From the IMG/VR virus record IMGVR_UViG_3300042561_001850: 64,000 nt of DNA, one strand, 5' to 3'. Below, piece by piece: positions 12,995-39,751 of this stretch (the first letter of the stretch is position 1; the number at the start of each line of letters is the position of its first letter). A model generated the notes under the pieces. It saw nothing but the letters and a program-made list of their open reading frames with translations, did not search any database and was not told the DNA's origin. This stretch comes from an uncultured virus (IMG/VR IMGVR_UViG_3300042561_001850) (lineage: Duplodnaviria > Heunggongvirae > Uroviricota > Caudoviricetes). Made by a program: the position numbers and the translations under genes.

Positions 12995-15193
12995 GTGCCG
13001 CAGGGCCTTTTGGAACTTGAGGCCCGGCTGGCCCGGCTGGATGCCAAGGCCAAGCAAGCGGCCCCCGGGCAAATCGGTCTCGACTTTGGGTCCACGCCCG
13101 CACCACCGGCCGCCGCCGGTGCGGGGCGCCCGGGCAAGCCCTGCGGTGATGGCCACATCAGCGCCGCCTATTCCTGCCACAAGAATGGCGGCGATGCCCC
13201 CCAGGGGCCAGCGGCTGGCGACACCTTCACATCGGATGAAGCCATTGCCCTGACGGTGTTGGCCAACAAGAAGCTGCGCAGCGACAAGGCCAGAAACAAG
13301 GCCATGATCGATCTGGGTGTCCGGCCAGATACGGATTTCGTCGCCCTGGTCTTGGCGGCACGGGAAAAGCTGGGCGGGCCCGGCTGGTGGCAGGACGAAA
13401 GCGGGTGGAAGGACAAACTGCAGCGCTTTGCAGCTGCAGCAGGGATAACGCCCAAAGCCCCCGCCAAGAAGAAGCAGGAGCCAGAGCTGATCAGCTCGGC
13501 CGAGGTGAAAACCTCCGCCGACCAGCTGGCATTTGCCAAACAGCAGCGGGCTGCGGCCCGCAGCGCTGGCGACACCACGGGGGAACAGGCCTGGGCTGAT
13601 TTGCAGCGGGACCTCCAACGCCGCCGCCTGGGGGCGGCCATGGCCGGCAAGCGCCAAAGCCAAACGGGACTCTTCGGGGCCACCGATTACGACCAGTCGC
13701 TGCCCCTCTTTGGTCGCAAGGATGGTGCCGATCGGGTTCGAGGTGAAATCGCTTCGATCGTCACGGCAGAACTCGAGCGCCAATTCCGCCAACCAATCCA
13801 GCTGCTCTCCCTCAACAGCTCCAGGGCCACCGGTGCGGTCACCGGTCGCTTTCGCAGTGGCCAAATGGTCTTCGGCTATCAGATCAAGGGGGAGCGGGTC
13901 AGCTATCAGCCCATCGGCGCCGAGCTGGCGAGGCCCCGGGGTTCGGCGCCGGAGCGGCAGGACGCCATCAGGGGTTGGAGCCCAGCGCGGTTGCAAGCGT
14001 TTCTAGTTACAGCTGCGCGGATGGACAGCCCCAGGCCCGGGCAGCGCCGCTGCGCCACCGGCTATCGCTGCGGCAGCACCTGCATCTCCCGCAGCAAACG
14101 GTGAGAACTCACCGGCAATGCCCAAGCCCTGGGCCGCCTGGGGGCCCTCGTCACCGGCGGCCAGGGCCAGGCCGTCACCAGGTTGGGGCGCAAGCTCCAT
14201 GGGCCCAATGATCGCCCGGCCCAGCTGCTCCAGCGGCGTGATGCCCTCCTGGCCGAAGGCCGTGACCTGCTCTCCCGCCGCCGCGATGACGGCAACGGCA
14301 CCCTCATGGAATTCCCCACCCCAGAGGCGATGCGAGCAATCAGCACCCTGGGGCGCCGCATCCGAGAGGTGGACCGTGAATTGCAGGAGGCCTCAGGCGA
14401 AAACCCCAACCACCGCCGCTGGCAGAAGGGCACCCCGGGCCTCGAAGACGGCCGCACCGGTTTCCCTGCAATGCCCGACAGCCCCGGGCGCAAGCTCTAC
14501 CGCGAGCAGCTGATCCAGGAGGCCCTCGCCAAGGGCACAACCGCCGGCAAGGGGGCCGGCGGCCGCAAGGTGGCCATCGTCATGATGGGGGGGCCCGCTT
14601 CGGGCAAATCAAGCCTCCTGGCCAAGGTGATGGCTGACACCACCGGCTATGTGAAGGTCGATCCTGATGAAGTGAAGGATCGGCTGCCCGAGTTTGCCTT
14701 GGCAGTCGCCAATTCCGACAAGCTGGCCGCGGCGAGAGCCCACGAGGAATCCAGCACCGCCATCGCCGAGGTGATTAAGGAGCGGGCAATTGAGGGCGGC
14801 TACAACGTCATGCTCGATGGAACGGGCAAAAACGGCAAGAAGTATCTGGCGATGGTGCAACGCCTCAAGGAACGGGGCTATGAGGTCCGGGTGATCATGC
14901 CCCACATCTCCGTTGCGGAGGGCGTGATGGCCGCTGAAAAGCGCGCCCATCGATCAGGGCGCTTTGTTCCTTTGGATTTCATCCGCCAGGCCTATGAGGT
15001 GATCCCGCACAACTTCGAGCAGGTGGCCCGCTTAGCGGATTCGGCGGTGCTGGCCGATGCCGAGCCCGATCGTCTGGGGGCCCGATCAATGAGCACCATC
15101 CAACGGTGGGAGAACGGGCGTATCGTTGAAGAGGACCAATCAAAATCACGCGCCTACAAACAGCAGTTTTTTGGAGGCAAAGCGCCGCGATGA
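12995..15193 (+). CDS. Modular effector 1: leader/Cys-knuckle modules plus C-terminal zeta-toxin-like P-loop kinase; interrupted by an in-frame TGA at 14102-14104
   Basis: ORFs 12995-14104 and 14183-15193 share a frame with one stop between them; zeta motifs MGGPASGKS, VDPDEVK, HEESS, NVMLDGT, RSGRFVP. Confidence 0.75.
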
Positions 15194-15357
15194 CCAGCAG
15201 CACCAGACAGGATCCCAGCGCATCAATTGGAGGCGACACCGCCGCAGACGAGCAACTTGATGCAACGCTGCCAGCGCTGACGGCAGAAGAGCTGGCAGCG
15301 TACGCACAAGAGTCGGAAGGGATGCCTGATTGGGACCCTGATTCCCACCTCGGCTGA
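15190..15357 (+). CDS. 55-aa acidic protein, candidate antitoxin/immunity factor
   Basis: ATGA overlap with the zeta stop; MTSSTRQDPSASIGGDTAADEQLDATLPALTAEELAAYAQESEGMPDWDPDSHLG (manual translation). Confidence 0.5.
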   Translation: MTSSTRQDPSASIGGDTAADEQLDATLPALTAEELAAYAQESEGMPDWDPDSHLG

Positions 15358-15397
15358 CCGTTAAAGGCCCAAACAAGGTCACAAAGGGCGGATTGCC

Positions 15398-15413: not shown

Positions 15414-15472
15414 TTGCTTGCATAGGGCTATTGCGCCAAGTGATACTTAAATGGTCATTGCACTGCATCCAG

Positions 15473-20561: not shown

Positions 20562-21062
20562 ATGACAACGCTGGCTGGCATCACGAGAGCTGATTGGGGC
20601 GAAAGCCTCAAGCTGTCCTACAAAGAGGGTCACCTCAGCTGGGTTATCGCTGCAACGGCTGCCTTTTATGTGGCCGGAATGGCCACCAGGGCCCTAATGA
20701 GGCGCCTTCGGGCTGAGCCACTGTTCTGGCTGTTGCGTCCGAAGGCGCCCAGCCTGGTCCTTGGCATTGACCCGGGCACAGAAGACGGTTCTGTTGATAC
20801 CCGATATGTGATTCTCTCGACGCCCGGACCCATCAGCTTCCCAGCTGCAGATTTTCTGGCGGCCGGTGGGATGGAGGCGGCGGAGATTCAACAAGTGCTG
20901 GGTGAACCAAGGCAACCACAGCCCTACCAAGTAGCAGCCATTGAGTCCATTAAAAGCGGTGGAATCAGCTACAAGCCCAAGCCCACTTATGCTCCATCCG
21001 ATCCTTCATCCGATCGCTCGGGCCCGCGCCAGCGCCGGCCCCGGGGCTTCAAAGCATCGTGA
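20562..21062 (+). CDS. Hypothetical protein with one hydrophobic segment
   Basis: ATG at 20562; LSWVIAATAAFYVAGMAT. Confidence 0.5.
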   Translation: MTTLAGITRADWGESLKLSYKEGHLSWVIAATAAFYVAGMATRALMRRLRAEPLFWLLRPKAPSLVLGIDPGTEDGSVDTRYVILSTPGPISFPAADFLAAGGMEAAEIQQVLGEPRQPQPYQVAAIESIKSGGISYKPKPTYAPSDPSSDRSGPRQRRPRGFKAS

Positions 21063-22539
21063 TCCAGCTGCTGTCCATCGGCCGCGCCGCCGCCCCAGCT
21101 TGGCCCGCCATGGCCAGGGCCATCACCGCATCGTCCTTGTGGCCTGGGGCGGCGGCGCGCCCGCCTTTTTCGTCCTGGCGGAAATTCCGCAGCTGATGGC
21201 CGAGGCCCTCGCGCTCTTCACCGTCCGGGAATGGGCCCTTGGGGATGACCAGCTCCTCCTGCTCCAACAACAGCACGATCCGATCGGTCATCAATAATTT
21301 TGAGGGCCCGCCAGTATGGATTTCGGTGATTTCGATTGATGGGCGCAGCAAGCAAAGAGCTTCAGCAACCGCTGCGCCAACACCATTGTTTTCAACCGCT
21401 ACCAGCACCGGCGCATATTCGTCAATGAGCCGTGCGCAACGCCGCAGGCCGTAGTCCCGGCTTTGGCCGCTCACGTTGAAACCGGCCACCACCCGCCACG
21501 GGCTGCGGGTGACATCGAGGACGATGCCGCAGAAGCCGTCACCGCCGCCGCCGTTGGGATCAATTCCCAGCACGTAGACGTTCTGCCGATAGGGCGATTC
21601 CCAGCCACCGCGAGACTCGGCCAGCTCGATCAGATCGTGGGAATAAACCTCAGAGTCGCTGGCGGTGAAATCGAGCTCAAATTCGCTTTGCCACTGGGCC
21701 TTGGTGATCTGCAGCGCGCGTCTATGTTTTTCGGGCCACTCTGGATCCTGGTTATAGACCGGATGCTGGGAGTAATGAATGCAAATCTTGGCGTACTGGT
21801 TGTCCGGGCTGATTCGCAGCCGCGGGATGCCATTGGCCCCCATTGGCGTGGGATCGACAACCACTTCGCCGTGGTCTTCGTGCCAGTGATCAGAAAACGC
21901 CCCTGATCGGCCCTTGGGGGTAGTAACCCACACGTGCCGCGCCGCGTCACCCAGCATGGAAGTGGTCGGAAGGGCGCCCTGCTCAATCCCTTTGAGCTTC
22001 TCGATGAAGGCCGCTTCATCGAACAGCAACATCGACGCCGAGGGGATGCCCCGGGCAGCACGTTCGGTGGGCGGCAGAAAATGCAGGCTGCCGAAGCCGT
22101 TGAAAACCAGCTTCCGCATTGAATCCTTTGCAAACTTGGGGCAGCGTTCCCGCAGGCTGCTGGCCTGGCCCTTGATTCGGGCTGCCAGCTCGCTGGCGTC
22201 TTCGCCGGTTTTCGAAAAAACGACACCTGTCCATGCCCTTTTTCGAATGGATTGACAGAGCTTGTACGAAATGATCGTTTCAGATGCGCCTACCTGACGG
22301 CTTTTAAGCACATAAACATTCTTTACCCTGCGAATCACTTTGATTAGATCACGCTGATACAAGTAAGGCCTGAATGGCATGTACTTGCCACTTGAAGCGA
22401 TTAACGTCTGCTCAGCGAAATCTGGCCAGGCAGGAGGAAGCGTGTCCCATGGGGCGGCAGCTTTTTCAGACGTGCCCAGAATTGGGATAGGTGAATACCA
22501 ATCAACTATTGAAGGTGGCCTTACAATTATCTGAACCAT
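21049..22539 (-). CDS. terL: Terminase large subunit
   Basis: PYLYQ, Walker A LKSRQVGAS, Walker B LLFDEAAF, VTTPKG, nuclease YVLGIDP...KDDAVMALA. Confidence 0.93.
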   Translation of the reverse strand: MVQIIVRPPSIVDWYSPIPILGTSEKAAAPWDTLPPAWPDFAEQTLIASSGKYMPFRPYLYQRDLIKVIRRVKNVYVLKSRQVGASETIISYKLCQSIRKRAWTGVVFSKTGEDASELAARIKGQASSLRERCPKFAKDSMRKLVFNGFGSLHFLPPTERAARGIPSASMLLFDEAAFIEKLKGIEQGALPTTSMLGDAARHVWVTTPKGRSGAFSDHWHEDHGEVVVDPTPMGANGIPRLRISPDNQYAKICIHYSQHPVYNQDPEWPEKHRRALQITKAQWQSEFELDFTASDSEVYSHDLIELAESRGGWESPYRQNVYVLGIDPNGGGGDGFCGIVLDVTRSPWRVVAGFNVSGQSRDYGLRRCARLIDEYAPVLVAVENNGVGAAVAEALCLLRPSIEITEIHTGGPSKLLMTDRIVLLLEQEELVIPKGPFPDGEEREGLGHQLRNFRQDEKGGRAAAPGHKDDAVMALAMAGQAGAAARPMDSSWITML

Positions 22540-23110: not shown

Positions 23111-24535
23111 ATGCAACGGGTCTTTGATGCAATTGAGGCCCGCCTGGCCCGCATCGATGCCCGCCTAGGTGCCCGCAAGGCACGAGCGCCTGGCCAGCTG
23201 GATCTGTTCGGCGGTGGCGCCCAAACTGACCTGACGATGCCTGGCCAGACTTCCACCAGCGGCCGGAACAGCCAGAAGCCACCGGCAGTGGGCCGTGCGG
23301 CCCGCGGCGCAACCGCACGAAATGGCAAGCCCTGCGGGGATGGTCACATCAGCGCAAGCCTCACCTGCCACAAATCAGGCAGTGCAGCGACACCAAACGC
23401 CCAAGCACCACCCAAGGGGCCAGCCTCCGCTCCAGCCACGCCAACAGCAAGTGAGGCGGCCCAGGGCAACACCAGCGCCGAGGCCTCTCCAGGCAGCGCA
23501 ACTGCCACCAGCTACGCCAGCCCAGCAGACCTCAGCTACGAGCTTGCCCTGAATGCCCACCGAGGCACGTCGTTTGACCCGGAAAAACGAGCCCGATCAC
23601 ACCAGGAGAACTACGCCGCACACCTCAACAGCCTCTACGCACGACTGCAGGACTTAGCTGAGTCACCGGAGCAAAAAGCCATTTTGGACGCCGAAATGCA
23701 GGCATACAAGGCTGGCTACACCAAGCGCTATACCGCCTGGCTAAGCGCAAAAAGCCGGCTTGTGAGCCCGATGATCGCCGGGCCCAGCAATTTCCCGGTG
23801 CGGCGCATGGAGAAGGCAAATCGGGCCGAAGATGTGAGGCGGCGCGAGCTGGAGGATTTCACCACCAGGGCCCAAAGCAGCATCTACCGAAAACTGCAGC
23901 GTGGCCGCACTCCAGAAGCCGCCCACGCCCAGGAGCTGGCCACGGTCACCCGCAGCATTGATCGAAGCATCACCTGGACAAGGGAAGCGGAATCGGGGCG
24001 CACGTTTTACGACCGGTCGTCAGCGGCGGCCTCGATTTCGGGCAAAATCAGCCGTTTGGCCAAAAATGGCCAGGTGGAGTTGGTGCGTGACCTTCTCGAC
24101 CACCTAAGGGATCAACAGGACACATTGCGCAAGCCGCTGTTTACCCCCAGGCATTCGGTTTGGAACCTGGAGGAGACGGCCCGGCAACAACGGCTGGCAA
24201 CAACCGCCAAAGCCGCCTCAGCAAAAGCCGGTGCAGCAGCAGCGGACTTCCAAAGCGGTGAAATCGAGCGTGACTTCGACAACAACCGGGTTCGGATCAG
24301 GTTTCACAATGGCAAGCCATCAGATGCCATCCGCAGCCAGCTGAAAAGATCTGGCTGGCGCTGGAGCCCCAGCAACAGCGCGTGGCAGCGCATGAACACC
24401 GAAAACAGCGTCTACGCGGCCAAGCGCATCCTCAAAGCTGCTGATGAAGAGCAAAAATCCCGTGGTGACAGCATTGAAGCAATCGAAAACAGACTGGTAC
24501 GGCTGAGTGCAGCTAAATCAAAAGTTGCTTGTTAG
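23111..24535 (+). CDS. Modular effector 2: leader/knuckle plus a mobile-element 'polyvalent protein'-type domain
   Basis: IEARLARIDAR, PGQLDLF, GKPCGDGHISASLTCHK; then HRGTSFDPEKRA..SPMIAGPSNFPVRRMEKAN and NRVRIRF..GKPS..LKRSGWRWSPSNSAWQR. Confidence 0.7.
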   Translation: MQRVFDAIEARLARIDARLGARKARAPGQLDLFGGGAQTDLTMPGQTSTSGRNSQKPPAVGRAARGATARNGKPCGDGHISASLTCHKSGSAATPNAQAPPKGPASAPATPTASEAAQGNTSAEASPGSATATSYASPADLSYELALNAHRGTSFDPEKRARSHQENYAAHLNSLYARLQDLAESPEQKAILDAEMQAYKAGYTKRYTAWLSAKSRLVSPMIAGPSNFPVRRMEKANRAEDVRRRELEDFTTRAQSSIYRKLQRGRTPEAAHAQELATVTRSIDRSITWTREAESGRTFYDRSSAAASISGKISRLAKNGQVELVRDLLDHLRDQQDTLRKPLFTPRHSVWNLEETARQQRLATTAKAASAKAGAAAADFQSGEIERDFDNNRVRIRFHNGKPSDAIRSQLKRSGWRWSPSNSAWQRMNTENSVYAAKRILKAADEEQKSRGDSIEAIENRLVRLSAAKSKVAC

Positions 24536-25281: not shown

Positions 25282-25578
25282 ATGGCACCAGTGGATTGGA
25301 GCAAATACCCAGACGACTGGAAAACGATCGCCCTCAATGTGAAGCGGCAATCGGACTGGACCTGCGAAGGCTGCAAAACCCAGTGCCGGCGCCCGGGGGA
25401 GCCCTTTATCACCCACAAACTGACCCTCACGGTCGCTCACATCAACCACATCGAGCACGACTGCCGGCCCGAAAACCTGGTGGCCCTATGCGCACCCTGC
25501 CACCTGCGCTATGACGGTGAGAGGCGCCGGCTGCAAAGGCGAGCGCTGGCACGCATCCAAAACGTAAAGCAAACCTAA
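25282..25578 (+). CDS. HNH endonuclease (packaging-associated type)
   Basis: YPDDW..CEGC..LTVAHINH..ENLVALCAPCHLRYD. Confidence 0.85.
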   Translation: MAPVDWSKYPDDWKTIALNVKRQSDWTCEGCKTQCRRPGEPFITHKLTLTVAHINHIEHDCRPENLVALCAPCHLRYDGERRRLQRRALARIQNVKQT

Positions 25579-26607: not shown

Positions 26608-28575
26608 TTGGATACCGACGAAATCGCTTTTGAGGAACGGCTTGACGGGGTATTGGTTAACGCCCTGACCAAAATGGGCACCAATCAGGACAAGGAGCGA
26701 TACACCGGGGTTGCAGCGCCAGAAATTCTGCAACCCGCTGACCTGGACGCTTTATACATAAACAACTGGCTCTGCCGGCGCATTGTCGACATCATCCCGC
26801 AGGAAAGCACCAGGGCGGGCTGGGCCCTGACCCTGGGCACGGAAACCACCGATGCTGAAAAAAAGCGGTTTGATCGGCTGGTTGCGGTTGGCGAACGCAT
26901 GGGGATCCGCACCCATGTCAAGGAAGCCATGCGGCAGTCTCGCCTTCATGGTGGCGCGGCGATCATCATGATTTTGGACGACAACACTCCCATCGATGAG
27001 CCTGTCAACCTCAAGAAGCTACGGGCCATCAAGGGGCTACATGCCATGGATTGCCAACGAGTTTGGCCGGCAGCGGGCTGGAGCGGTGTAGGCGAACCTG
27101 ACCTTTATCAAATCCAAATCAACCGAGATGAAGATTTGCGGAAGATTGGGATGAAAGATCAATTACTGCATGTGCCTATCCATCGCTCCAGGCTGCTGCG
27201 TTTTGAAGGGGACGCTGCTCCGTACAGCTACAAAAGTCACTTTAAGTGGTGGGGCATATCCGTATTGCAGTCCGTTTGGAATGTATTTAAGCGTTATGAA
27301 ACAGGCCAAGCATCAGCCGCCAATATCCTTAACGATTTCAGCCTTTATGTGCAAAAAATCAAGGGTTTAAAAGGCATGGTTGAGCAAGGGAAAGGCGACT
27401 TTGTGGCCAATCGGTTGTCACTGAACGCGCTGATGCGTTCAGTGATCGGCGGGATCGCCCTGGACGCTGATGGCGAGGAGGCCTCGTTTCTGACCCGTTC
27501 GGCCGCCGGGGTCGATTCGATCATCGAGAGGCTCAAGGATGAGGTGCAGGGGGCAAGCCGGATCCCCCATACCAAGCTTTGGGGCAGCTCCCCATCGGGG
27601 TTGGGGGCCACTGGGCAGTCCGAGAAGTCGGATTTTGCGCAGGAAGTTCACATGCTCCAGGAGGACCACCTGGATCGGGCGCTGCGGCAGTACTACGAAA
27701 CCCTGGCCGCCTGCTCAACCAATCGGGCAGCAATGGAATTGCCGGAGGATTGGCAGATTGATTTTCACAGCACCATCACCCTTTCCGACCTGGAAGAGGC
27801 CGAGCTACGGGGCAAGGTGGCCTCGGCCGACAGCCAGTACCTCAACGCAGGTGTGTTGCAGCCCAACGAAGTGGCCTTGGCGCGTTTTGGCGGGGCCAAG
27901 TTCTCGATGGAGACCACCCTGCTGGACCGCGAGAAGAATGGCGCGATCAAACAGGATCCCCAAAACCTGCCACCACCCACCTTTGGTGGTGACCTGGCCA
28001 CTCTGCCCGGCGAGGCCATTGGCCAGGGCCAGGGCCAGCAGCAAGTGCCCCGTGGGGACAGCGGGGACGAACGCGACGACGGTTGCTGCAGCCCCTGCGA
28101 CGCCGCCACCGCCAGGGGGAAGCCCGCCACCTGCAACGACGGCGCCGTCGACGGCCAGCAGCAGGCCGATGACCAGCTGGAGGGCCAGCAAGCGGCGGCC
28201 GCCAAGGCGATCGCCAGGGCAATTGCGCAGGACAAGCGCCGCAAGGGCCGCGGCCGGCGGCCCGGGGTACGGGCGGACGGCAGCCGGGTGACCGGTCGGC
28301 GAGTGGTGGCCGGCGTGCCAGTTGACGTCCGCATCGATGGCAGCGCCACCCTGGTCGGACCCTACGGGCAGGGCCTGGGCCTCGAAGCGGCAGTGGGCTT
28401 TGACTCCACTGGAATATGGGAGGTGCTCAGCCCGGCCGGCCAATGGACAGCCGTGGTGGGGGTGGAAGATCAGGCCATGGTGGTGGCCGCCGCCGGCCCA
28501 GGTGCCCGGGTGCGCCGCCTAGATGGCATCGACTTGCTGGCGATGGGGGTCCGATGCGACAGCTATGAGCCATGA
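26608..28575 (+). CDS. Portal protein (DUF1073 family) with a C-terminal extension of about 200 aa
   Basis: LYINNWLCRRIVDIIPQESTR, SRLHGGA, IHRSRLLRF, WGISVL, IPHTKLWGSSPSGLGATG. Confidence 0.88.
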   Translation: MDTDEIAFEERLDGVLVNALTKMGTNQDKERYTGVAAPEILQPADLDALYINNWLCRRIVDIIPQESTRAGWALTLGTETTDAEKKRFDRLVAVGERMGIRTHVKEAMRQSRLHGGAAIIMILDDNTPIDEPVNLKKLRAIKGLHAMDCQRVWPAAGWSGVGEPDLYQIQINRDEDLRKIGMKDQLLHVPIHRSRLLRFEGDAAPYSYKSHFKWWGISVLQSVWNVFKRYETGQASAANILNDFSLYVQKIKGLKGMVEQGKGDFVANRLSLNALMRSVIGGIALDADGEEASFLTRSAAGVDSIIERLKDEVQGASRIPHTKLWGSSPSGLGATGQSEKSDFAQEVHMLQEDHLDRALRQYYETLAACSTNRAAMELPEDWQIDFHSTITLSDLEEAELRGKVASADSQYLNAGVLQPNEVALARFGGAKFSMETTLLDREKNGAIKQDPQNLPPPTFGGDLATLPGEAIGQGQGQQQVPRGDSGDERDDGCCSPCDAATARGKPATCNDGAVDGQQQADDQLEGQQAAAAKAIARAIAQDKRRKGRGRRPGVRADGSRVTGRRVVAGVPVDVRIDGSATLVGPYGQGLGLEAAVGFDSTGIWEVLSPAGQWTAVVGVEDQAMVVAAAGPGARVRRLDGIDLLAMGVRCDSYEP

Positions 28576-30011
28576 GCATTGACCGTCGGCTGGAGCTCCA
28601 GCAGCGGCTAAGCGACGAACTGCGGGGCCTGGAGGATGAAGCGATCGGGCGGATCGGTCGCGTCTTCGAGGGGGCCCTGCGGGAAACGGTCGCACGCATT
28701 TTTGCGCAGCTCGATGGCATCGCCGCCCAACCCGCCTATGACCCAAAGACCACCCCAGGGGCGTTTTTGGGATCCACCCCCGAGGGGCAGGTATCGATCG
28801 ATCCGGTTTTGAAGAATCAAGCCCAGCTGATCCTGCAGGGGCAGCTGCTCCAAGATCTCCGGCAGATCGTCGATTCGATGCAGCTCTCCCCCCGGCGGAT
28901 GGAGCGGCTGGAGAGCGAACTGAAAGCCCTGTTCGATCGGGCCCAGGGACTGGGCAGCGAATATGCCCTCCAGATCACCGGGGCAGAACTCGAGCCCTCC
29001 CTGGCGGCGCTCTCCCCTGAGGGGCAGATCGAGCGGCTGCCAGGCCAGGGCCAGGGCCAGGGGCCGGGCGACGGCCCGCCGCTGTTGCCCAGCCAGCAGG
29101 GTCAGCAGGGCCCCGCACCGATCGACATGCCATCGGCGCCAGATCGGGGGTACCAGGGTGGGCAACGGCTGAGCCGGCTCTTCGATCTCAGCGGTGCGGT
29201 GATCGCGGCGGAACGTGATTTCAAGAGCCTGTCCGAGAACTACGCCAAAGAGCGTGACGCGGCCTCCGATGAGCACGTCAGGGCGTCAAAGGCTTACTAC
29301 GCCAAGTGGTGGGCTGAATGGGGGGAATCGGTGTCATTTGAGACGGCGCGCCAGATGGCCCAGGGCCCCGATCCCCGGGCGCTGAAGGCCAAGCTGCGGG
29401 AGAGGATCCCAACCATCAACGAGGCCTTCAAAAACCGGGCGGAAACGATCGCCCGCACCGAAACCTTGATGGCATCTGGCGAGGCCCAAGAGCGGATCTA
29501 CCGCCGGCTGCGGGTTGGCTTTGTGCAGTACCTGGCGACGCTTGATGACCGCACCTGCGAGTTCTGTGCGCCCCGATCCGGCTGCATCTACTGGATTGGT
29601 GGGGTGAAAACCCCGATCCATCCGAACTGCCGCTGCGGCGAGAGCCCGATCACCTTGGAATCGCTGGTGATCCAGAACAGCATGGCGAAATCGCCGGAGC
29701 AGACCTGGGAGGCCGAGTTCCAGGCCCATGCGGCGGCCACAATGGCCTATTTCCGGGCGGCCGCCGGCGCCGATGCGGTGCCCCGGCCGGTCGGTGGGCC
29801 CGGGGACATGCGGGGCAAGTCTGCTGACTACCCCCTGATGGAGCGCAAAGGCCTGCCGCAAAGCGTGGCCAGGAAAGCCTTGAGCCCAGATGACCCACTG
29901 AACCAGGCCGCGCGCGATTGGCCAGCTGGGGACCCGGTGTGGTGCCCGCGGCGAGGTTGGCTGGACCAGCAAGCCAGGGCGGCCTATGAGGCGATTTTTA
30001 GATCGGTTTGA
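28572..30011 (+). CDS. MuF / phage head morphogenesis (minor capsid) protein
   Basis: RAETIARTET, ATLDDRTCEFC, PIHPNCRC. Confidence 0.88.
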   Translation: MSIDRRLELQQRLSDELRGLEDEAIGRIGRVFEGALRETVARIFAQLDGIAAQPAYDPKTTPGAFLGSTPEGQVSIDPVLKNQAQLILQGQLLQDLRQIVDSMQLSPRRMERLESELKALFDRAQGLGSEYALQITGAELEPSLAALSPEGQIERLPGQGQGQGPGDGPPLLPSQQGQQGPAPIDMPSAPDRGYQGGQRLSRLFDLSGAVIAAERDFKSLSENYAKERDAASDEHVRASKAYYAKWWAEWGESVSFETARQMAQGPDPRALKAKLRERIPTINEAFKNRAETIARTETLMASGEAQERIYRRLRVGFVQYLATLDDRTCEFCAPRSGCIYWIGGVKTPIHPNCRCGESPITLESLVIQNSMAKSPEQTWEAEFQAHAAATMAYFRAAAGADAVPRPVGGPGDMRGKSADYPLMERKGLPQSVARKALSPDDPLNQAARDWPAGDPVWCPRRGWLDQQARAAYEAIFRSV

Positions 30012-33222: not shown

Positions 33223-36072
33223 TTGACACCAAGAGAAACAGCAGTGGATGTCAGGCAGGAAACAGCGTCGCTCGTTAAATCAATCATTGACGAACTGATT
33301 CACGACAGCGTGCATCTGCTGACTCTCAATACATCTGGCGCCACTGGTGAAACTACTGGCACCTTTCGTGCTGGCCAATTGGTCTACAACTACAGAATTC
33401 AAGGCAATAACGTTACTTATTCGCCCGTTAGTGACAATTCAGCTGGACGTGCTGACGCCAAGCGGGGCACAGCCAGCAAAACGGTGCCCAGGGGGCATCC
33501 TGGATTCAGGCGGATCGAAACCCGCATGGCGCGGCTGGACGGTGCGACTGCCGCCATGGCGGCGATTGATCCGATCACGGCGCCACTGACGGCGGTGCTG
33601 GCCGCATCGCTGCCTGGGGCGGCCGTTTTGAGCTGGGACCGGCAGCACGCCCCCCAGGGCCAAAGCCTCACCGGGCGAGTGGCGGCAGCTGGGCTGGTTT
33701 ACCAGTTTCGCGTCGATGGCGAAGCCGTGCGGTTCCGCCCAGCCTGGGATGTCGAGACCGATGCAACCTGGGCGGCGAGGTCTGAAGGATTTCTGGCGGC
33801 CCGGGGCCACCGCCTCGATTTCCGTGACACCCGAGCCAAAGGCAAGAGCGCCAGCAAGCGGCGGTGCACCACCGGCTACGGCTGCGGGGCCACCTGCATC
33901 TCAGTCAACAAGGAGTGCGTCATCAGGGCCGCCAGCGCCATCGGCAAGGAGCGGTTGCGGCGGCTGCAGGAGCTAGTAAGCCAGGGCGACCCAAATGCCG
34001 GGAAGGTGCAGGCGGCCGTGCAGGCAGGGCGCAATCAAAAAGCCAAAGGCCTGCAGGAGGGCCGGCAAGTGGAGCGGTTGCGGGCAATGCTGCAAGATCC
34101 GGCGGTTGCCCAGATGGTCCGCAGCGGCAAGGTGCCCGCAGCAACGGCCGCGGCGCCCGGCCCCGGCCTGGGGGGGCCCGGCCAGGGGGGCCTGGCAGGG
34201 ACCGTGGCGGTCGTGGCGCCGGACTCCATCGAGGTGGATCCCAAGCGCTTCCAGTTCAAGCTCCACTCATCTGCCAGCGGAGAGGTTGGCTCCCTCGCCG
34301 GCATCAAAAAATGGGACGACAACCTCGCCGGGGTGATCTCGGTGTGGCAAGACCCGGCCGATGGCAAGACCTATGTCGTGAACGGGCACAACCGCCTCGC
34401 ATTGGCCAAACGGATGGCGGCAGAGTCCGTGACGATCCGGTACCTCAAGGCCGCCAATGCCAACGAGGCCCGTGCGATCGGGGCCATGCAGAACATCGCC
34501 CAGGGCCAGGGCAGCAGCGTCGATGCGGCGAAATTCTTCCGGGATTCCGGCATCACCGATCAGGCGGCCGTTGAACGCGCCGGCCTCCCCCTCCAATCCG
34601 GCAAGGCCGCCCAGGGCCTGGGGCTGGCCCGGCTGCCCGAGTCGATGTTCCGTGCGGTCATTGACAACGAGCTTTCAATCAGCCGTGGCGCGATCATCGG
34701 TAATTCAGGGCTGAGCAAGGCCAAACAGGGCGAAATCGGCAAGCTGTTGCGGCAGCGCAAAAACATCTCCGATGGCACCCTGCAGGAGTACGTCGAAAAC
34801 CTGGCCGTCAGCGTGGCCAGCACGCAGGGGGCCCTGGACATCTTCGGGGGGCAAGAAACGGTCGACAACGGCCTGGCGCGGGCGGAGCTCGCCAACAACC
34901 TGCGGCGCAAGCTGGCCCGGGAAAAATCGCTCTTTGCCACCGTCAGCAAAAGCCGCGCGACCGAGGCCCTCCAGCAGAAGGCCGGCAACAAGATCAACCA
35001 ACGGGAAAGCGCCGAAGTTGCCGCCGAAGCCGATCAGGTGCTGAGGGTGTTCAAGGAGCTGAAGGACAAGGCCGGCCCGATCGCCACCGCCCTCAACAGC
35101 GCCGCCAACCGCATGCTGAAGGGCGACCCGGCCGCCCAAGTGAAGAAGGAGCTGGAGGAGCAGGTGATCGCCGCCATGCAGCTGGAGCTGGAACGGGCCG
35201 GCTTGCGCAAACCGAAGAACCTCGCCAACGAGGCACCCACGGCCAGCATGTTCGACAGCCTCATCAGCCGGATCATCCGCCTGGATGCTCGCGCCCGAAC
35301 CACCCCGGGCCAGCTGCCCTTGATGGCCGGTGGCGCCCAACTCGATCTGGGCATGCAGCGTGGCACCACCACCAGCCAGGGTGGACGCAAGCCGCCGGCA
35401 GTGGGCCGGGCCGCCAAGGCCGCAGCTACCGGCAACAGCAAAGCCGGCAAGCCCTGCGGGGATGGTCACATCTCTGCGGCCCTCACCTGCCACAAAGGAG
35501 GTGCAGGGGCCGGCAATGGGGCCATGGTCTACGCCGGTGAAAGTGATGACGGCAGCCGGTTTGTTGATGCCAAGCCGAACGCCGCGCCGTTGTTCAAGAT
35601 CCCCCCTCGCCAGGAAACACCAGCAAGCCCAACGGCCAGCAAAACCCCGCTGGCCGATGCCATGCGCCAGGCAATCCAGCAGATGAAGGCGGCAGACGTT
35701 CGGCAGATGTCGATGCTGGCCAACCAGCTGTTCGAATCCGAATGGAGCCTGGAGCGCAAAGGCAAATGGAAGGGCATGACCAAAGCTGCCGCCCAACAGG
35801 CCTACATCCAAGAGTTTGGCCAACAACTGCAGGAGGCGCAAGCCCAGCGCCAGCAGCAGGCTCAGCAAACTCAACCGGCAGGCAGTGGCGCGCCGATGAA
35901 GCTGTCCCAACGCATGCGACAGCTGACTGAGGCGATGAAAGCGTCTGACGAGCGGATGGCAAAGCTGGGGGAAAAGATCTTTGAGCTGCGCCGCAGGACC
36001 ATGGGCCTCGACAGCCCCCCGGATGAGGGGCTGACAGGACCAGCGAGCCGGACACTGCCACGAGGGAAATGA
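33223..36072 (+). CDS. Modular effector 3: two beta-modules, Cys4 knuckle, ParB-like domain, second leader/knuckle, coiled coil
   Basis: RRCTTGYGCGATCISVNKEC; IEVDPKRFQFK..GKTYVVNGHNRLALAKR; IIRLDAR..PGQLPL..GKPCGDGHISAALTCHK. Confidence 0.75.
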   Translation: MTPRETAVDVRQETASLVKSIIDELIHDSVHLLTLNTSGATGETTGTFRAGQLVYNYRIQGNNVTYSPVSDNSAGRADAKRGTASKTVPRGHPGFRRIETRMARLDGATAAMAAIDPITAPLTAVLAASLPGAAVLSWDRQHAPQGQSLTGRVAAAGLVYQFRVDGEAVRFRPAWDVETDATWAARSEGFLAARGHRLDFRDTRAKGKSASKRRCTTGYGCGATCISVNKECVIRAASAIGKERLRRLQELVSQGDPNAGKVQAAVQAGRNQKAKGLQEGRQVERLRAMLQDPAVAQMVRSGKVPAATAAAPGPGLGGPGQGGLAGTVAVVAPDSIEVDPKRFQFKLHSSASGEVGSLAGIKKWDDNLAGVISVWQDPADGKTYVVNGHNRLALAKRMAAESVTIRYLKAANANEARAIGAMQNIAQGQGSSVDAAKFFRDSGITDQAAVERAGLPLQSGKAAQGLGLARLPESMFRAVIDNELSISRGAIIGNSGLSKAKQGEIGKLLRQRKNISDGTLQEYVENLAVSVASTQGALDIFGGQETVDNGLARAELANNLRRKLAREKSLFATVSKSRATEALQQKAGNKINQRESAEVAAEADQVLRVFKELKDKAGPIATALNSAANRMLKGDPAAQVKKELEEQVIAAMQLELERAGLRKPKNLANEAPTASMFDSLISRIIRLDARARTTPGQLPLMAGGAQLDLGMQRGTTTSQGGRKPPAVGRAAKAAATGNSKAGKPCGDGHISAALTCHKGGAGAGNGAMVYAGESDDGSRFVDAKPNAAPLFKIPPRQETPASPTASKTPLADAMRQAIQQMKAADVRQMSMLANQLFESEWSLERKGKWKGMTKAAAQQAYIQEFGQQLQEAQAQRQQQAQQTQPAGSGAPMKLSQRMRQLTEAMKASDERMAKLGEKIFELRRRTMGLDSPPDEGLTGPASRTLPRGK

Positions 36073-37403
36073 GACCGATGCGAAACGACGGGGCGCCTGG
36101 TGCACCGGGCGTGGCAATGAACTCCTTGGAGATCCGTCTTGAGCGGCTCGACGCCCGAGGGAAACCGGGAATTCCCTGCGGGGAGAGCTTTATCAATGCC
36201 AATGACAAGTGTCACAAGGGAAAGGGGGCGACAGGGATGCCCCCAAAACTGGCCGCAATCGTGAAGCAAGCTCAGGCCCGAAGAAGGGAGATTGAGGCGC
36301 TGAACGCATCACGTCGCAAAACGCTCGAAGCTGGTGCTCAGGGCCTGGAGATCACATCGGCATCTGAAGACTTCCCCGAGGAGTCCAAGGCGCCAAAAGT
36401 GCAGGGCCGTTTACCAGTGAAAGCGCTGGGGAGCGGCAATTTTGGTGACACCTACCTTTTCAAGACAAAAGACGGCACCAAGGTGGTGGTCAAGGTTGAT
36501 CGCCTCTCCAACCAAGATCCGAAAGAGGATGGCTTTGATGTGCCGCAAGAAACGCAAAGGCTCAATGCCGTTACCCGTGAACACGCGGCCATGCATCGAG
36601 CGAGCGAGCTGGGCCTTGGCCCCAAACCCCTCAGCAATGTGCAAAAGCTTCCGGATGGCCGGCTTGCCTTTGCCTATGAGTTTGTTGATGGGATGAGGCT
36701 GTGGAAAGATCACCGAAGTGCCGAGCCCACCCCCGAGGCACTCGACCTGCTGGAGCAACCAGGCTTTAAGGCCAAAATTGCGGCAAGCGTTGGGAAGATT
36801 GCCCGCATCATGGCCGAAAGCGGCTTCGAGCATGGGGACGGACATGGCGGCAACATCCTGCTTAAGCAGGACGGGACGATTTCGCTGATCGATTGGGGCT
36901 ACAGTTCCCAGTCAAAGGTGGGATCCGCAGCAGAGAAGGCACAGATTGAAGCCAGGCAAGCTTGGATTATGGGGGATATGTTCGGTATCAACGGATCTAT
37001 AAACATGAGGGCAAGAAATGGTCTCGGTGAGGTAAAGGGACCAATCAGCGGCGAGACAGGGTCTACCCCTCTAAATGTTTTTCAAGTAAAAATCAGCAAG
37101 GCACTGACAGCCGAGCAGCAAGTGATCAAGGATTACGAAAGTGCATGGAAAAAAGATCCAAAAAACATTCTCAGCGTTGACAAAGAAAACCAGCTTTTGG
37201 ATGAAGCTATTCGTTTGAACAGGGAGAAGGGAGTGAATTTCAAGGAGGCACAGCGCATAGTGGGCATCGAGCCCTTGCTGACACCCGAGATTTTGAGCAG
37301 GGCCGCCGCCGCCCGTGATGCGATCTTCGGCGAACGGCAGCTGCGGACGATGCGCCGCATGATCGATACCCACTACCAGGCCTGGAACGACTACCAGCCA
37401 TGA
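36069..37403 (+). CDS. Modular effector 4: leader/knuckle plus protein kinase-like domain
   Basis: LERLDARGKPGIPCGESFINANDKCHK; LGSGNFGDTY, VVVK, REHAAM, HGDGHGGNIL, IDWG. Confidence 0.82.
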   Translation: MRPMRNDGAPGAPGVAMNSLEIRLERLDARGKPGIPCGESFINANDKCHKGKGATGMPPKLAAIVKQAQARRREIEALNASRRKTLEAGAQGLEITSASEDFPEESKAPKVQGRLPVKALGSGNFGDTYLFKTKDGTKVVVKVDRLSNQDPKEDGFDVPQETQRLNAVTREHAAMHRASELGLGPKPLSNVQKLPDGRLAFAYEFVDGMRLWKDHRSAEPTPEALDLLEQPGFKAKIAASVGKIARIMAESGFEHGDGHGGNILLKQDGTISLIDWGYSSQSKVGSAAEKAQIEARQAWIMGDMFGINGSINMRARNGLGEVKGPISGETGSTPLNVFQVKISKALTAEQQVIKDYESAWKKDPKNILSVDKENQLLDEAIRLNREKGVNFKEAQRIVGIEPLLTPEILSRAAAARDAIFGERQLRTMRRMIDTHYQAWNDYQP

Positions 37404-39751
37404 AGCGCTCCGTCATGACGATGCAGATACCCAAGCGGTTGAAAGTCCGGATGGCCATGGACGCCGCAGCTGCCGCCGGAGAGTGGGATCAACACGCTGT
37501 GTTGCAGAGCCAGTGGCAAAACCTGATCACTGGTGAAGCGCCTGATCGAAGTGACAGCCTTGCCGGCATCAACGCCCGTCTTGACGCACTAGTCAAGCGC
37601 CTTGACGCCCGCCGCAAGGCCTCCCCCGGCCAGCTCGACCTGCTTGGCGGCGGCGGAGCGCAAACTGAGATCCCCCTGGGCGTCACCAGCAAGAGCAAAG
37701 GCCAAAAGCCAGCAGCTGTAGGCCGGGCCAGCAAGGCCGCGGCGGCCAGCAACGGCCGGGCCGGCAAACCCTGCGGGGATGGCCACATTGCGGCGGATCT
37801 CACCTGCCGCAAAGGGGCTGGGGAGACAGGCGAAAGCCAGGAAGGCCAGGAAGCTCCAGCTGACAAGCCGGCCGCAGGGCGGAAGGGAGGACGCCCAACA
37901 GCACCTGCCGACCCCCGGGAGGGAACCACCGGAGCGGTTGAGTCTGGTGACTATAGATTCGCCCGAAAATCCGAGGTCCCGAACGCCGGGGAAGATCTGG
38001 CCCTATCGGCCCGCCATCGGCGAAACATGTTCTTGGGATTGGCGGCGGAGGAGGCCGCCGGCACCGCCGAAAAGAACCTCACTCGCGACAACCTGCTCAA
38101 GGCCACACCCCATGACCTGATCGCCGGCATGACCCCGGCCAACAGCCTGAGCAGCCTTCAGGGTTACCTGACGCTCCAGGCGTTCCCGGCGCGGCCGTAC
38201 AGCGAAAAGGAACTGGCGGGTTACCAGCGGGCAATGGAACGGCAGGCGCGGCCAGGGATGCAATCCACGGCTGTTTCTCCGGAAGGCCTGCGGGAGCAAT
38301 ATCACGATGCGTTTCAGCAGCTCCATGGGCTGGTTCATGCGCTACAAAAACATGCCGATCCTAATGCCAATCGTTTAGTTATTCTAAAATGGATTGGCGA
38401 TAAAGTTCGAGAGTTACGACAGCAGCAAACAAGCGGCACATCGTCACTTGCAGTTTCGACAGCAAAAGACCCATACAATCCTGTAGCCAACAGTCTGATT
38501 GATTTTTCGCGGCGCATTGGCCGTCGGGGGACTACCTCCGTGCCCGGGAAGATGGAAGATTTCTCCCGTCGGCTCAAGGCCGCCATGGGCAACGACTTTG
38601 GGTCGGCCGAAACCACCTTGGAAAAGGCGAGGGAAATTGCGACCCGGATCATGGAGGGCAGCAGCTTCAACGAGGCCTTCGGGACCGTCGGCGCCAATGG
38701 CAAGCGGCGCTTCAATCCGGCGGATCTCTACGTGGCCCCGGCCAATCGCCAAGGGGGCCGCAACGTCGGTGGCTCGACGATTGAGCAGGGCACCGATTTC
38801 ATCCTCAAGGGATCCGGGTTCCGAGGTCTGCAGTTTGGCAACAGCGTCAGCGATGACGAGCGCAAGCACCACCTGAAGAAGGCGGCCGAGGCCCTGGCCG
38901 ACTTGGCCGATGTGACCGGCCTGCCTGATGAAGCCATGGGCTTGAAGGGTTCGCTGGGCCTGGCCATTGGCGCCAGAGGGCGAGGTGCTGCGCTGGCTCA
39001 CTTCGAGCCAAAGCTCAAGGTGATCAACCTCACCCGCAAACGGGGCATCGGCACCCTTTCCCACGAATGGGGCCACGCTCTCGACAACTACCTGGGGCTG
39101 AAGGCCGGGGTGGCGGCGAGCAGCGCCCCCAATAGCGACAGAATCCACCCGGACCACGTTTTCCTCACCAACTCAGGCAAACCGTGGGAGAAGGATCCCA
39201 AAAACCCATCCCCCGTGATCGACGCGATGAAGGCCGTGAACGAGGCCCATGTCACATCGGGCTTTATGGATCAGGTGGAAAAGGAAGCCAGGGGCATAAG
39301 GAGGGCCATGGCCTTCAACGCGGACTACTGGCGTTCGCGGCCAGAGATGTTCGCTCGATCATTTGAGGCCCACATTGACCGCAAGCTGAAGGCCCTTGGG
39401 CGGGCGAACACCTATCTGACGCAGACCCCCGACTCTTTGCTATGGCCGACTGCTGAGCAGTCCGACGCAATGGCGCCAGCCTTTGATCGGCTGATGGCCG
39501 CCGTGCGCGCAGAGCACTTTGCCGACGCACCAAAGCGTAATGATGCAAGGGGTGTCCGCATTGATCGCTTCATGGCCGCCTTGGAACGCAACACGCCTCA
39601 GAAGCCGAGAAAGCAGCCAGGGCAAACTGAACCCGAGCAAAAATCCGAATCTCCCGCCACCGAAGCCCCGATCAACTGGGACAACGTCGCCAGCGAAGTG
39701 AAGACCATGCTGGAGCTGGACCCCAAGGATCCAGAAGACGGCACCGATTAG
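37400..39751 (+). CDS. Modular effector 5: leader/knuckle plus zincin-like (HExxH) and LPD1-like polyvalent domains
   Basis: KRLDARRKASPGQLDLL..GKPCGDGHIAADLTCRK; FRGLQFGNSV, LGLAIGARG..AHFEP..INLT..GTLSHEWGHALD, YWRSRPEMFARSFEA. Confidence 0.8.
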   Translation: MKRSVMTMQIPKRLKVRMAMDAAAAAGEWDQHAVLQSQWQNLITGEAPDRSDSLAGINARLDALVKRLDARRKASPGQLDLLGGGGAQTEIPLGVTSKSKGQKPAAVGRASKAAAASNGRAGKPCGDGHIAADLTCRKGAGETGESQEGQEAPADKPAAGRKGGRPTAPADPREGTTGAVESGDYRFARKSEVPNAGEDLALSARHRRNMFLGLAAEEAAGTAEKNLTRDNLLKATPHDLIAGMTPANSLSSLQGYLTLQAFPARPYSEKELAGYQRAMERQARPGMQSTAVSPEGLREQYHDAFQQLHGLVHALQKHADPNANRLVILKWIGDKVRELRQQQTSGTSSLAVSTAKDPYNPVANSLIDFSRRIGRRGTTSVPGKMEDFSRRLKAAMGNDFGSAETTLEKAREIATRIMEGSSFNEAFGTVGANGKRRFNPADLYVAPANRQGGRNVGGSTIEQGTDFILKGSGFRGLQFGNSVSDDERKHHLKKAAEALADLADVTGLPDEAMGLKGSLGLAIGARGRGAALAHFEPKLKVINLTRKRGIGTLSHEWGHALDNYLGLKAGVAASSAPNSDRIHPDHVFLTNSGKPWEKDPKNPSPVIDAMKAVNEAHVTSGFMDQVEKEARGIRRAMAFNADYWRSRPEMFARSFEAHIDRKLKALGRANTYLTQTPDSLLWPTAEQSDAMAPAFDRLMAAVRAEHFADAPKRNDARGVRIDRFMAALERNTPQKPRKQPGQTEPEQKSESPATEAPINWDNVASEVKTMLELDPKDPEDGTD

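Follow-up and report, generated by a model that had tools for sequence, protein, structure and literature searches.

A repeated helix-and-knuckle junction between the cargo domains of polyvalent-type proteins encoded among the head genes of a cyanophage-like siphophage

Polyvalent proteins are regarded as the earliest of a phage's weapons to reach the inside of a cell, and two questions about them are how they are loaded into the head without fusion to MuF or the portal and how their domains come to be separated. Both are raised by a stretch of 64,000 nucleotides from an uncultured virus of the Caudoviricetes (IMG/VR record IMGVR_UViG_3300042561_001850; the whole stretch is called the window here), in which five genes share a short element, made of a helix ending in R-x-D and a two-Cys knuckle, in front of different enzyme domains. 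A preliminary description had inferred from these genes a candidate system in which leader tags load payloads into the capsid. The system is not of a new kind: the proteins are polyvalent proteins, with LPD1, zincin (HExxH), kinase, zeta-toxin and ParB-like domains.

Translation bears out seven knuckles in the five genes, whose frames are open as first described (Table 1), and the run of residues said to be shared was recovered in an alignment of the five leader-plus-knuckle stretches. The helix (L/I)xxR(L/I)xR(L/I)DA(R/K) is found in all five leaders, the run PGQ(L/I)xL in four and an additional stretch, KP(P/A)AVGRA, in three. The knuckle reads G-K-P-C-G-D-G-H-I-(S/A)-x4-C-(H/R)-K in four of the genes, the kinase gene having a shorter variant, and the pattern for junction knuckles is G-[KQ]-P-C-G-x-[SG]-[H/C/F/W/Y]-I-x5-C-[HR]-x-G. 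Both knuckle forms have the core C-G-x-x-[C/H]-I-x5-C, and they differ in the position of the fourth ligand, which is an upstream Cys in the Cys4 form and a His after the last Cys in the other. In the relatives P0028, P0032 and P0037 a Cys4 knuckle stands directly behind the same helix (RLDAIEARLIRLDKNC...). The tag thus has three parts, namely an amphipathic helix with R-x-D at its end, a linker PGQ(L/M)xL(F/DL) that may be absent, and a knuckle of 12 residues, C-G-x-x-[H/C/F/W/Y]-I-x5-C; the flexible linker, with its Gly residues, belongs to the junction of this lineage. The four long copies have a mean column identity of 66% at the DNA level, and since they differ at synonymous sites, also inside the knuckle, conservation acts on the protein.

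The module had been taken for an N-terminal leader, which holds for genes 1 and 2 but not for gene 3, where the leader is internal (residues ~ 672–762). The tag is a domain-boundary junction, repeated between domains in fused relatives, and not only an N-terminal leader. For example, P0008 (1577 aa) consists of three junction-plus-cargo units, the gene 5 unit included, and P0028, P0032 and P0040 (1744–1944 aa) have at least three junctions each at E < 1. Other relatives were found by inspection to be mosaic at this point: P0023 joins a gene 3-type linker to a different knuckle and the gene 5 cargo, P0018 joins the leader of P0023 to the knuckle native to gene 5, P0017 departs from P0016 in its knuckle type and in a ~ 150-aa domain inserted right behind the knuckle, and P0025 has a deletion from inside the module to the C-terminal tail. 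Because of these mosaics, the junction can be regarded as a breakpoint for the exchange of linkers and cargo. Genes 2 and 5 end with, or near, an extra R-x-D and amphipathic helix (24491–24535, SRGDSIEAIENRLVRL; 39536–39580, KRNDARGVRIDRFMAAL), and in P0008 this helix runs on into the next unit; it looks as if gene fission had taken place just after a junction helix. From their sequences, the five genes would be a polyvalent-protein arsenal that has been broken up.

The shared module is not a product of chance, since a profile of 61 positions (A3, built from 17 copies) matches at least 150 representatives with E-values from 1e-67 to 1e-3. These came from a search of 1.84 billion proteins at E <= 1e-3, with 45 of the at least 150 listed at E <= 1e-10, and a word-indexed search with A3 gave 36 longer proteins. 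Many carriers are 1000–3300 aa long with two to five junction copies. Among the matches listed, 121 proteins of at least 200 aa hold 278 knuckles, with one knuckle in 32 proteins, two in 44, three in 27, four in 13 and five in 5. The full leader, with helix and PGQ, is present in roughly the best 60 representatives, as judged by eye, and the knuckle core reaches further. As anticipated, the domains behind the module are unrelated to one another and are conflict-type domains of many families in Pfam and PHROG scans. The Pfam scan covered 110 of 139 new representatives, and in the first batch 28 of the 51 top representatives had at least one cargo family. The families include ART-PolyVal, ADPrib_exo_Tox/ART, InPase, NUDIX, 2'-5' RNA ligase/Acb1-like (2H), PolyA_pol with HD, APH/RIO1/ABC1/Pkinase, M90/ATLF-like zincins, GNAT, LRAT, DnaJ, His_Phos_1, ParB_N, lipase, LPD1 and LPD3, and zincin-like cargo (M90/ATLF-like or LPD1-associated) is among the commonest.

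That the tag belongs to no named family also stood: no Pfam, NCBIfam or PHROG model names it, and no Pfam family covers the knuckle in the 110 scanned representatives. A literature search on polyvalent proteins and their head delivery or processing returned nothing on the junction, and the body of the article by Iyer et al. 2017 (PMC5512222) does not mention it, though its online supplements may hold it. Searches at the nucleotide and structure level added little. A scan of 185,579 genomes for the knuckle pattern gave 12 matches, none of which kept the second Cys in register and all of which were due to chance; tblastn of the 92-aa module, a search of low sensitivity with the low-complexity filter on, found nothing in plasmids or in 50,697 phage records; tblastn of the distant knuckle protein P0138 found no match in cultured phages; the pattern KPCGDSHI led to one uninformative lineage only; and the ESM Atlas returned no usable match to the module. 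One match to the knuckle profile, a eukaryotic thrombospondin-repeat protein (P0102), was set aside as a chance pattern. Among the matches listed, 28 of 149 representatives are shorter than 200 aa. Several of these (P0115, P0122, P0128, P0131, P0143, P0154, P0155, P0163, P0167, P0169–P0172 and others) are proteins of 74–140 aa in which two Cys4 knuckles of the NCKKGKPCGNSCISKNDVCHK type follow a hydrophobic N-terminus. The N-termini of several of the small carriers listed are signal-peptide-like, and a Pfam scan of 13 small carriers gave no cargo domain and no family. These small two-knuckle proteins could belong to a cellular family that is secreted and has the knuckle in common.

The genes that carry the junction have a fixed place among head genes. 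The back-translated pattern of KPCGASHIPK occurs in 99 stretches of IMG/VR, which make up 73 loci. A portal like that of the window was matched in 58 of these, MuF in 65, large terminase (TerL) in 43, DUF2213 in 37, cement in 32 and capsid in 27. Each of the 27 long loci (at least 15 kb, from 25 contigs) has a knuckle gene (~ 700–1530 aa, with one to three knuckles) directly upstream of MuF, and the portal (and TerL) precede that gene wherever the locus reaches so far. Up to three more knuckle genes follow MuF, and then, in 26 of the 27, come DUF2213, cement and capsid, so that the order is TerL, portal, knuckle gene, MuF, knuckle genes, DUF2213 protease, cement, capsid. In the window it is portal, MuF, other genes, three coupled knuckle genes, protease, cement and capsid. 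The supposed link to head genes of phages with DUF1073 (portal_3) and DUF2213 is thus well founded, with DUF2213 in 26 of the 27 long loci and a conserved order. The supposed independence from MuF is not, given that the window has MuF as a gene of its own behind the portal and that 65 of the 73 related loci have a MuF-like gene; in none of the 73 does a knuckle open reading frame (ORF) overlap the MuF match.

Two other phages extend this arrangement. In the cultured Planktothrix phage PaV-LD (L136, 8893–16957), five adjacent Cys4-knuckle genes (ORF078, 079, 080, 081 and 085) sit just downstream of the capsid gene; two start at the knuckle, and in the other three the knuckle is preceded by F-R-x-D-A or L-R-I-D-A. 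In ORF079 the knuckle is followed by two nearly identical repeats, each of ~ 220 aa. PaV-LD is a candidate experimental model. A weak match to PaV-LD ORF085 (E = 6e-4), CL131 ORF048, a protein of 1811 aa detected in virions, is a possible tape measure and was not counted. A 105-kb viral contig of another kind (L043) encodes a 761-aa protein with four knuckles directly upstream of a phrog_328 prohead protease (7156–8376, minus strand), and this protease has a knuckle in its own N-terminal extension. The two neighbours also have an N-terminal F-Y-K-L-F-N motif in common. Beyond its capsid gene, L043 encodes one more polyvalent protein, which has four knuckles and at least 1344 aa.

If these proteins belong with the head, what do they have in common with the proteins that build it? 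The answer suggested by the window is the R-x-D motif. Its 58 ORFs hold 35 copies of R.D[SAG]: 18 in the five genes, seven in the portal, seven in the protease-scaffold protein, and one each in the capsid, HNH and tape measure proteins. The other 48 ORFs hold none, the shuffled expectation being about one per protein. In the portal the seven copies (1.0 expected) lie mostly in the C-terminal extension, and the MuF-like protein has none. Across 33 DUF2213 homologues (37–77% identity) there are 296 copies of R-x-D-[SAG] against 28.1 expected, at alignment positions kept in 21–30 of the 33 sequences, within an otherwise variable scaffold half. The protease of Synechococcus siphovirus S-CBS4 has five (0.5 expected) and that of PaV-LD twelve. 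R-N-D-x or R-L-D-x occurs within about the first ten residues of the capsid protein in all 18 distinct relatives by eye (12 with a stricter pattern); the capsid N-terminus has T-R-L-D-A in PaV-LD and F-R-M-D-E in S-CBS4.

The motif also stands before many of the knuckles. Among the matches listed, R.D is found no more than 25 residues upstream of 50% of 278 knuckles, compared with 10% of random positions, and in loci of the DUF2213 lineage it is present at this range in 135 of 142 distinct knuckle contexts. In L043, with its other protease family, R.D precedes none of nine knuckles, and seven of the nine have an Asn within seven residues, in the form hydrophobic-x-N-[SA]-[GQ]. The leader helix also looks like the best-conserved helix of the protease-scaffold protein. 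The scaffold-like half of the window's DUF2213 protein carries, along with its position-conserved R-x-D-[SAG] sites, a helix (GRMDAISERLAELE) that resembles the leader helix, and a near-invariant scaffold segment, G-R-x-D-A-L-x-E-R-L-D-x-L-E, can be set beside the leaders, which read (R)-x-D-(S/A)-L-x-x-R-L-x-R-L-D-A-R. The string RLDALVER is common to one relative's leader and one scaffold, and in the best profile-profile alignment of module and protease the leader helix falls on the scaffold's R-x-D-A-L-x-E-R-L-D-x-L-E. The portal's C-terminal extension (28000–28575) has six R-x-D-[SG], a Cys cluster (DDGCCSPCD...GKPATCNDG) and the end RRLDGIDLLAMGVRCDSYEP, and it may be processed like cargo.

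The prohead-protease motifs of T4 and phiKZ are L/I-x-E or A/S/G-x-E. In giant phages, the prohead protease cuts head proteins and ejection proteins at a motif that they have in common, mostly with removal of N-terminal propeptides, and one motif is shared among scaffold, portal, capsid and ejection proteins in T4, phiKZ and SPN3US (PMC10052503, excerpts); by this analogy, the DUF2213 protease could be expected to cut at R-x-D. The reading that we favour, and to which we would give roughly even confidence, is that the junction is a prohead-targeting, protease-cut site, from which enzymes could be freed in the capsid and then ejected. The scaffold-like leader helix would recruit the enzyme units to the scaffold core, so that they co-assemble into the prohead. 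The DUF2213 protease would then cut the units at R-x-D, the motif that is concentrated in its own scaffold half, in the portal extension and at the capsid N-terminus, and each freed enzyme would begin a few to ~ 60 residues before a knuckle. The freed enzymes would stay in the head, leave with the DNA and act on the host as kinase, zeta-type kinase, ParB-like nuclease and zincin. Packaging of a protein of this class has a precedent in a 2811-aa LPD1-bearing polyvalent protein detected by proteomics in phi24B virions (10.64898/2026.04.10.717836, excerpts). Encapsidation, cleavage and binding of the present proteins are predicted from sequence only and unproven. The descriptive part of the account, namely a junction at domain boundaries with diverse cargo, exchange, a place in head operons and an R-x-D in common with head-assembly proteins, is held with high confidence.

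Several observations weigh against cutting and targeting at the junction. Not every R-x-D-[SAG] can be a cut site, because the motif is also conserved inside the folded protease domain (at ~ 42 and ~ 121 of P0046). The DUF2213 protein of Pam3 has a single copy, which is no enrichment, and that of FP_Brigit has three, which is a mild one, so R-x-D, if it is the protease specificity, is limited to a lineage. The covariation of the pre-knuckle motif with the protease family concerns two protease lineages only. R-x-D and knuckle lie 8–58 residues apart in the window and need not act together. The profile match of leader to scaffold is weak (probability 5%, E = 0.0076, over 14 columns). AlphaFold2 left the knuckle unmodelled, with a predicted local distance difference test (pLDDT) score below 50, and the bare knuckle is not confined to polyvalent proteins, since the small proteins carry it as well. 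Prediction of a complex between module and protease-scaffold protein gave no answer (score 0.00) and is evidence neither way.

Least certain of all is the role of the knuckle, which may be a metal-dependent clasp, a DNA anchor or a docking element. Over 312 copies its logo reads G(-3)-[KQ]-P-C-G-x-[SG]-[H85/C64/F64/W53/Y46]-I-x5-C-[H131/R120]-[KVI]-G, where the two Cys only are invariant. Among 277 knuckles in large proteins, two possible metal ligands are present in 90, three in 92 and four in 93. The reading of the proposed Cys/His knuckle as a zinc site is therefore uncertain. Candidates for four conserved Cys/His ligands at fixed spacing, the mark of the classical zinc knuckle or ribbon, are found in those 93 of 277 only, and because 90 offer just two ligands, a classical single-chain zinc site is not general. 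A site shared between two chains or with a partner is possible, as is a metal-free hairpin.

What if the knuckle were itself the address? It could be a small metal-binding nucleic-acid clasp, by which the effectors ride packaged DNA into the host, with R-x-D and helix being secondary. The invariant Cys pair would suit this, as would the His or Cys at +4 in 149 of the 312 copies and the His after the second Cys in 131, the basic flanks (K at −2, [HR] at +12, K at +13, with KPPAVGRAAK upstream), and a local sequence that we take to resemble retroviral CCHC knuckles; moreover, the knuckle is kept across lineages with different protease families, which fits a universal partner such as DNA. However, the 90 knuckles with two possible ligands have Phe, Trp or Tyr at +4 and Arg after the second Cys, the C-x3-[HC]-x6-C spacing differs from every named knuckle that could be compared, Pfam and NCBIfam scans gave no match to a DNA-binding family, and AlphaFold2 gave no knuckle model, so that we find the clasp rather unlikely. 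The unmodelled region, the Gly/Ala-rich linkers and the chimeric modules and cargo swaps among close relatives would all agree with a flexible linker that has no role of its own, whose similarity promotes recombination of cargo cassettes in proteins that are late, cytoplasmic and not packaged. Such a linker would not be expected to keep G-x-P-C-G, I, C and G across at least 150 clusters at no more than 50% identity, with DNA that differs synonymously, nor to hold its genes at a fixed place inside head operons, nor to be found, as a knuckle, on a prohead protease itself. It is the least probable of the explanations weighed here.

The remaining alternatives concern which enzyme cuts and what the linker binds. 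If the junction were recognised by zincin-like metallopeptidases of the polyvalent proteins themselves (HEWGH in gene 5), which would cut in place of the prohead protease, then the concentration of R-x-D in the protease-scaffold protein, the portal extension and the capsid N-terminus, even in S-CBS4, would go unexplained, and so would the differing pre-knuckle motif in the lineage with the other protease. We think this quite doubtful, even with zincin-like cargo so common behind the junction and with the proposal of Iyer et al. 2017 that polyvalent proteins are processed by their zincin metallopeptidase (MPTase) domains (PMC5512222, excerpts). A putative beta-sliding-clamp-binding motif in PGQ(L/M)xL(F/DL), which would tether the injected enzymes to DNA-loaded clamps of the host or block the clamp, is compatible with a protease-cut junction. 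Known clamp-binding motifs follow the consensus QL[S/D]LF or QxxLF and include QLSLPL of Hda, QMGLF of B. subtilis DnaE and the tight binder QLDLF (PMC12309361, excerpts). Gene 2 has QLDLF, and relatives have QMGLF, QMDLF, QLGLF and QLSLDL; the stretch around the motif is rich in Gly and presumably disordered. Among 58 distinct leaders, QxxLF is matched by 18 and Q[LMI]xLx[LFM] by 23 (41 match either). Yet the motif is short, and its copies are homologous and hence not independent. Neither form is matched by 17 of the 58 leaders, gene 4 lacks the motif, and so do most knuckle junctions of other lineages. We hold clamp binding to be unlikely. In combination with the preferred reading, it would give a two-sided tag, in which the helix loads the prohead and the cut exposes a clamp-binding peptide (PGQLDLF/QMGLF/QLxLDL) and knuckle, so that ejected enzymes ride DNA-loaded sliding clamps of the host. 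This combination is very improbable; if true, phages would have in it a general means, swappable by cassette, of directing injected enzymes to the host replisome.

Table 1. Positions in the window of the knuckle genes, their knuckles and the head genes around them
Feature	Coordinates	Strand	Content or basis
Knuckle gene 1	12995..15193	+	junction module 12995-13192; one X domain; R-M-D-S and Cys4 knuckle 14045-14104; Zeta_toxin/AAA_33 domain
Knuckle GKPCGDGHISAAYSCHK	13133-13183		translation
Knuckle RRCATGYRCGSTCISRSKR (followed by stop), Cys4 form	14045-14104		translation
Large terminase	21049..22539	-	phrog_2, E = 2.4e-25; context of gene 2
Knuckle gene 2, 474 aa	23111..24535	+	N-terminal junction module 23111-23386 with PGQLDLF; phrog_19458, E = 1.4e-20
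Knuckle GKPCGDGHISASLTCHK	23324-23374		translation
Portal protein, Phage_portal_3	26608..28575	+	E = 6.2e-65; C-terminal extension of ~ 240 aa
MuF-like minor head protein	28572..30011	+	PF04233, E = 3.2e-8; TIGR01641; separate gene, without knuckle
Knuckle gene 3, 949 aa	33223..36072	+	two X domains; R-L-D-F and Cys4 knuckle 33859-33918; internal junction 35236-35508
Gene 3, further parts	~34195-35151 (ParB-like region)		ParB-like region; C-terminal domain without assigned function
Knuckle RRCTTGYGCGATCISVNKEC, Cys4 form	33859-33918		translation
Knuckle GKPCGDGHISAALTCHK	35446-35496		translation
Knuckle gene 4, 444 aa	36069..37403	+	short junction 36108-36236 (helix, RLDA, knuckle 2 residues on); protein-kinase/APH-like domain
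Knuckle GKPGIPCGESFINANDKCHK, shorter variant, kinase gene	36159-36218		translation
Knuckle gene 5, 783 aa	37400..39751	+	junction module 37547-37825; zincin-like domain with HEWGH, and LPD1
Knuckle GKPCGDGHIAADLTCRK	37763-37813		translation
DUF2213 prohead protease with C-terminal scaffold-like half	40062..41390	+	E = 1.9e-41
Cement protein, Phage_cement	41427..41984	+	E = 6.4e-18
Major capsid protein, PF09950	42020..42952	+	residues 4-7 are R-N-D-A

The five genes themselves differ in how far their cargo can be named. The zeta-toxin cargo ascribed to gene 1 is in the same frame and extends to 15193, but it lies beyond an in-frame TGA and so outside the 12995–14104 ORF. This single TGA (14102–14104) parts 12995–14104 from the zeta-toxin ORF (14183–15193) and falls exactly on the fourth Cys of the gene's second knuckle. 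The relatives P0030 and P0031 (~ 98% identical) are uninterrupted proteins of 732 aa with Cys at the stop position, P0030 matching PF06414 (zeta toxin) with E = 1.8e-26; the homologue in the nearest viral record, G001, is an open frame of 738 aa; and the DNA of one relative is the same as gene 1 over the compared stretch, except for TGC in place of TGA. A truncated form of 369 aa is recorded from three contigs (cluster P0029). Most simply, the TGA would be a nonsense mutation or a base-call error. Selenocysteine insertion or read-through was considered and is less likely, in view of the TGC and the Cys of the relatives; a hairpin downstream of the TGA is part of the sequence that relatives read with Cys.

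Gene 2, oriented divergently from the terminase genes, has a cargo resembling the C-terminal parts of phage 'primase' proteins. Gene 3 matches phrog_21, a region that is fused to portals in other phages (E = 1.1e-47); a Pfam scan gave no match, and ParB_N is carried by the ESM Atlas clusters nearest to it, which we take as a lead only. In 13 sequences, R197 and D199, which precede its Cys4 knuckle, are invariant, as are the four Cys of the knuckle. The start of gene 4 overlaps the stop of gene 3, and the start of gene 5 the stop of gene 4. The cargo of gene 4 matches APH (4.2e-9), ABC1 (2e-7) and Pkinase (1.1e-6), and gene 5 matches LPD1 (E = 9.5e-12) and phrog_616 (E = 1.7e-33), with a CLCA_X match below the cut-off. 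No Pfam secretion-system domain was seen in the five proteins. A second shared module, here called the X domain (~ 70–90 aa), stands before the Cys4 knuckles, twice in gene 3 and once in gene 1 (33223–33860; 13750–14040), and is also present in PaV-LD ORF078 and ORF079 and in giant relatives. It is predicted as a helix and four-stranded sheet in a model of X domains with Cys4 knuckle (mean pLDDT 57). Likeness to cystatin-like folds or YpmB (Z 6.9 and 6.6 over 61–62 residues) is below the level that separates kinship from common arrangement, and neither assignment was kept.

The whole window is phage DNA by annotation of its ORFs, and it also encodes recombination and replication genes, an endolysin and lambda-like tail genes. 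The virus is a cyanophage-like siphophage of ~ 69 kb. G001 has 69,291 bases, is 98% complete and carries the same five modules. The nearest cultured relative is S-CBS4 (genome 69.4 kb; capsid protein 43.7% identical), whose head-gene order matches the window; its slot from portal/MuF to protease holds glycosyltransferases, a methyltransferase, an HNH endonuclease and small hypothetical genes, and no large polyvalent gene is annotated there. Megablast of 33223–41390 against cultured phages gave no match. Three other loci in the window may be mentioned. Between the terminase region and the portal, at 25282–26471, are an HNH endonuclease gene (plus strand) and a sigma-factor-like gene (minus strand, phrog_351). 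A small helix-turn-helix repressor-like gene (39748–40047, minus strand) is wedged between the knuckle operon and the protease, and S-CBS4 has a repressor at the same place. Inserted between tail genes, but on the strand opposite to theirs, is a KilA-N domain gene (55089–56177, minus strand) that is weakly BstA-like and has a moron-like look.

A junction so short, widespread and easy to recognise would be of practical value. It predicts cut sites and mature N-termini that can be checked by mass spectrometry, it may reveal the specificity of uncharacterised DUF2213 prohead proteases, and it is a candidate portable tag for loading foreign proteins into the capsids of this phage group. It also defines the boundaries of cargo, many segments of which have no known family, and so could be used to mine metagenomes for anti-defence and take-over enzymes.

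How does the junction compare with known systems? The retroviral CCHC knuckle has the spacing C-x2-C-x4-H-x4-C. It is like the present knuckle in being a short Cys/His hairpin with Gly after Cys, a hydrophobic or aromatic residue and basic flanks, whereas the latter is spaced C-x3-[H/C/F/W/Y]-x6-C, may have a further Cys upstream or a His downstream, and has two invariant ligands. The internal proteins of T4, with their capsid-targeting sequence, and the substrates of phiKZ and SPN3US (PMC10052503, excerpts) likewise have a short peptide ending in an acidic P1-type motif common to scaffold, portal and capsid, and they are internal head proteins later ejected, which is here predicted from the genes alone. 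R-x-D is such a common motif in the junctions, the protease-scaffold protein, the portal and the capsid N-terminus, though its role as protease specificity is a prediction; the motif itself is different, the protease is DUF2213 and not T4 gp21-like, and the knuckle has no counterpart.

MuF-fused toxins are also variable effectors encoded next to the portal and MuF and presumed to be head-delivered. In contrast to them, the five proteins have no MuF domain (PF04233), MuF being a separate neighbouring gene, and the constant part is a tag of 40–90 aa before each cargo in place of one N-terminal MuF domain. P1 DarB/DdrB and phi24B gp47, giant virion-borne polyvalent proteins, are similar in their ParB-like or LPD1/zincin content; virion packaging is documented for phi24B gp47 (10.64898/2026.04.10.717836, excerpts) and, for P1, is cited in PMC5512222 (excerpts).

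The closest likeness is with the polyvalent proteins at large, for which packaging and injection have already been proposed (Iyer, Burroughs, Anand, de Souza and Aravind 2017; PMC5512222, excerpts). The repertoire is alike (LPD1, zincin MPTase, ARTs, kinases, NUDIX, 2H, InPase, ParB-like), as are the genes among virion genes, the proposed delivery with DNA and the mosaic architectures. Typical domains are present in the window (LPD1 and HEWGH in gene 5, a kinase in gene 4, a zeta toxin in gene 1), and ART-PolyVal, InPase and LPD3 in relatives, and the genes lie among phage virion or late genes. Polyvalent proteins have 2–15 domains per polypeptide; the window genes have one recognisable enzyme each with accessory domains, and their fused relatives reach 1100–3300 aa, so that the window genes look like a split form. 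They differ in that the arsenal is partly split into five genes with a conserved junction per unit, and in that processing is ascribed here to the prohead protease and there to the zincin. The effector class is thus already known, and what seems new here is the junction, an R-x-D helix with a two-Cys knuckle.

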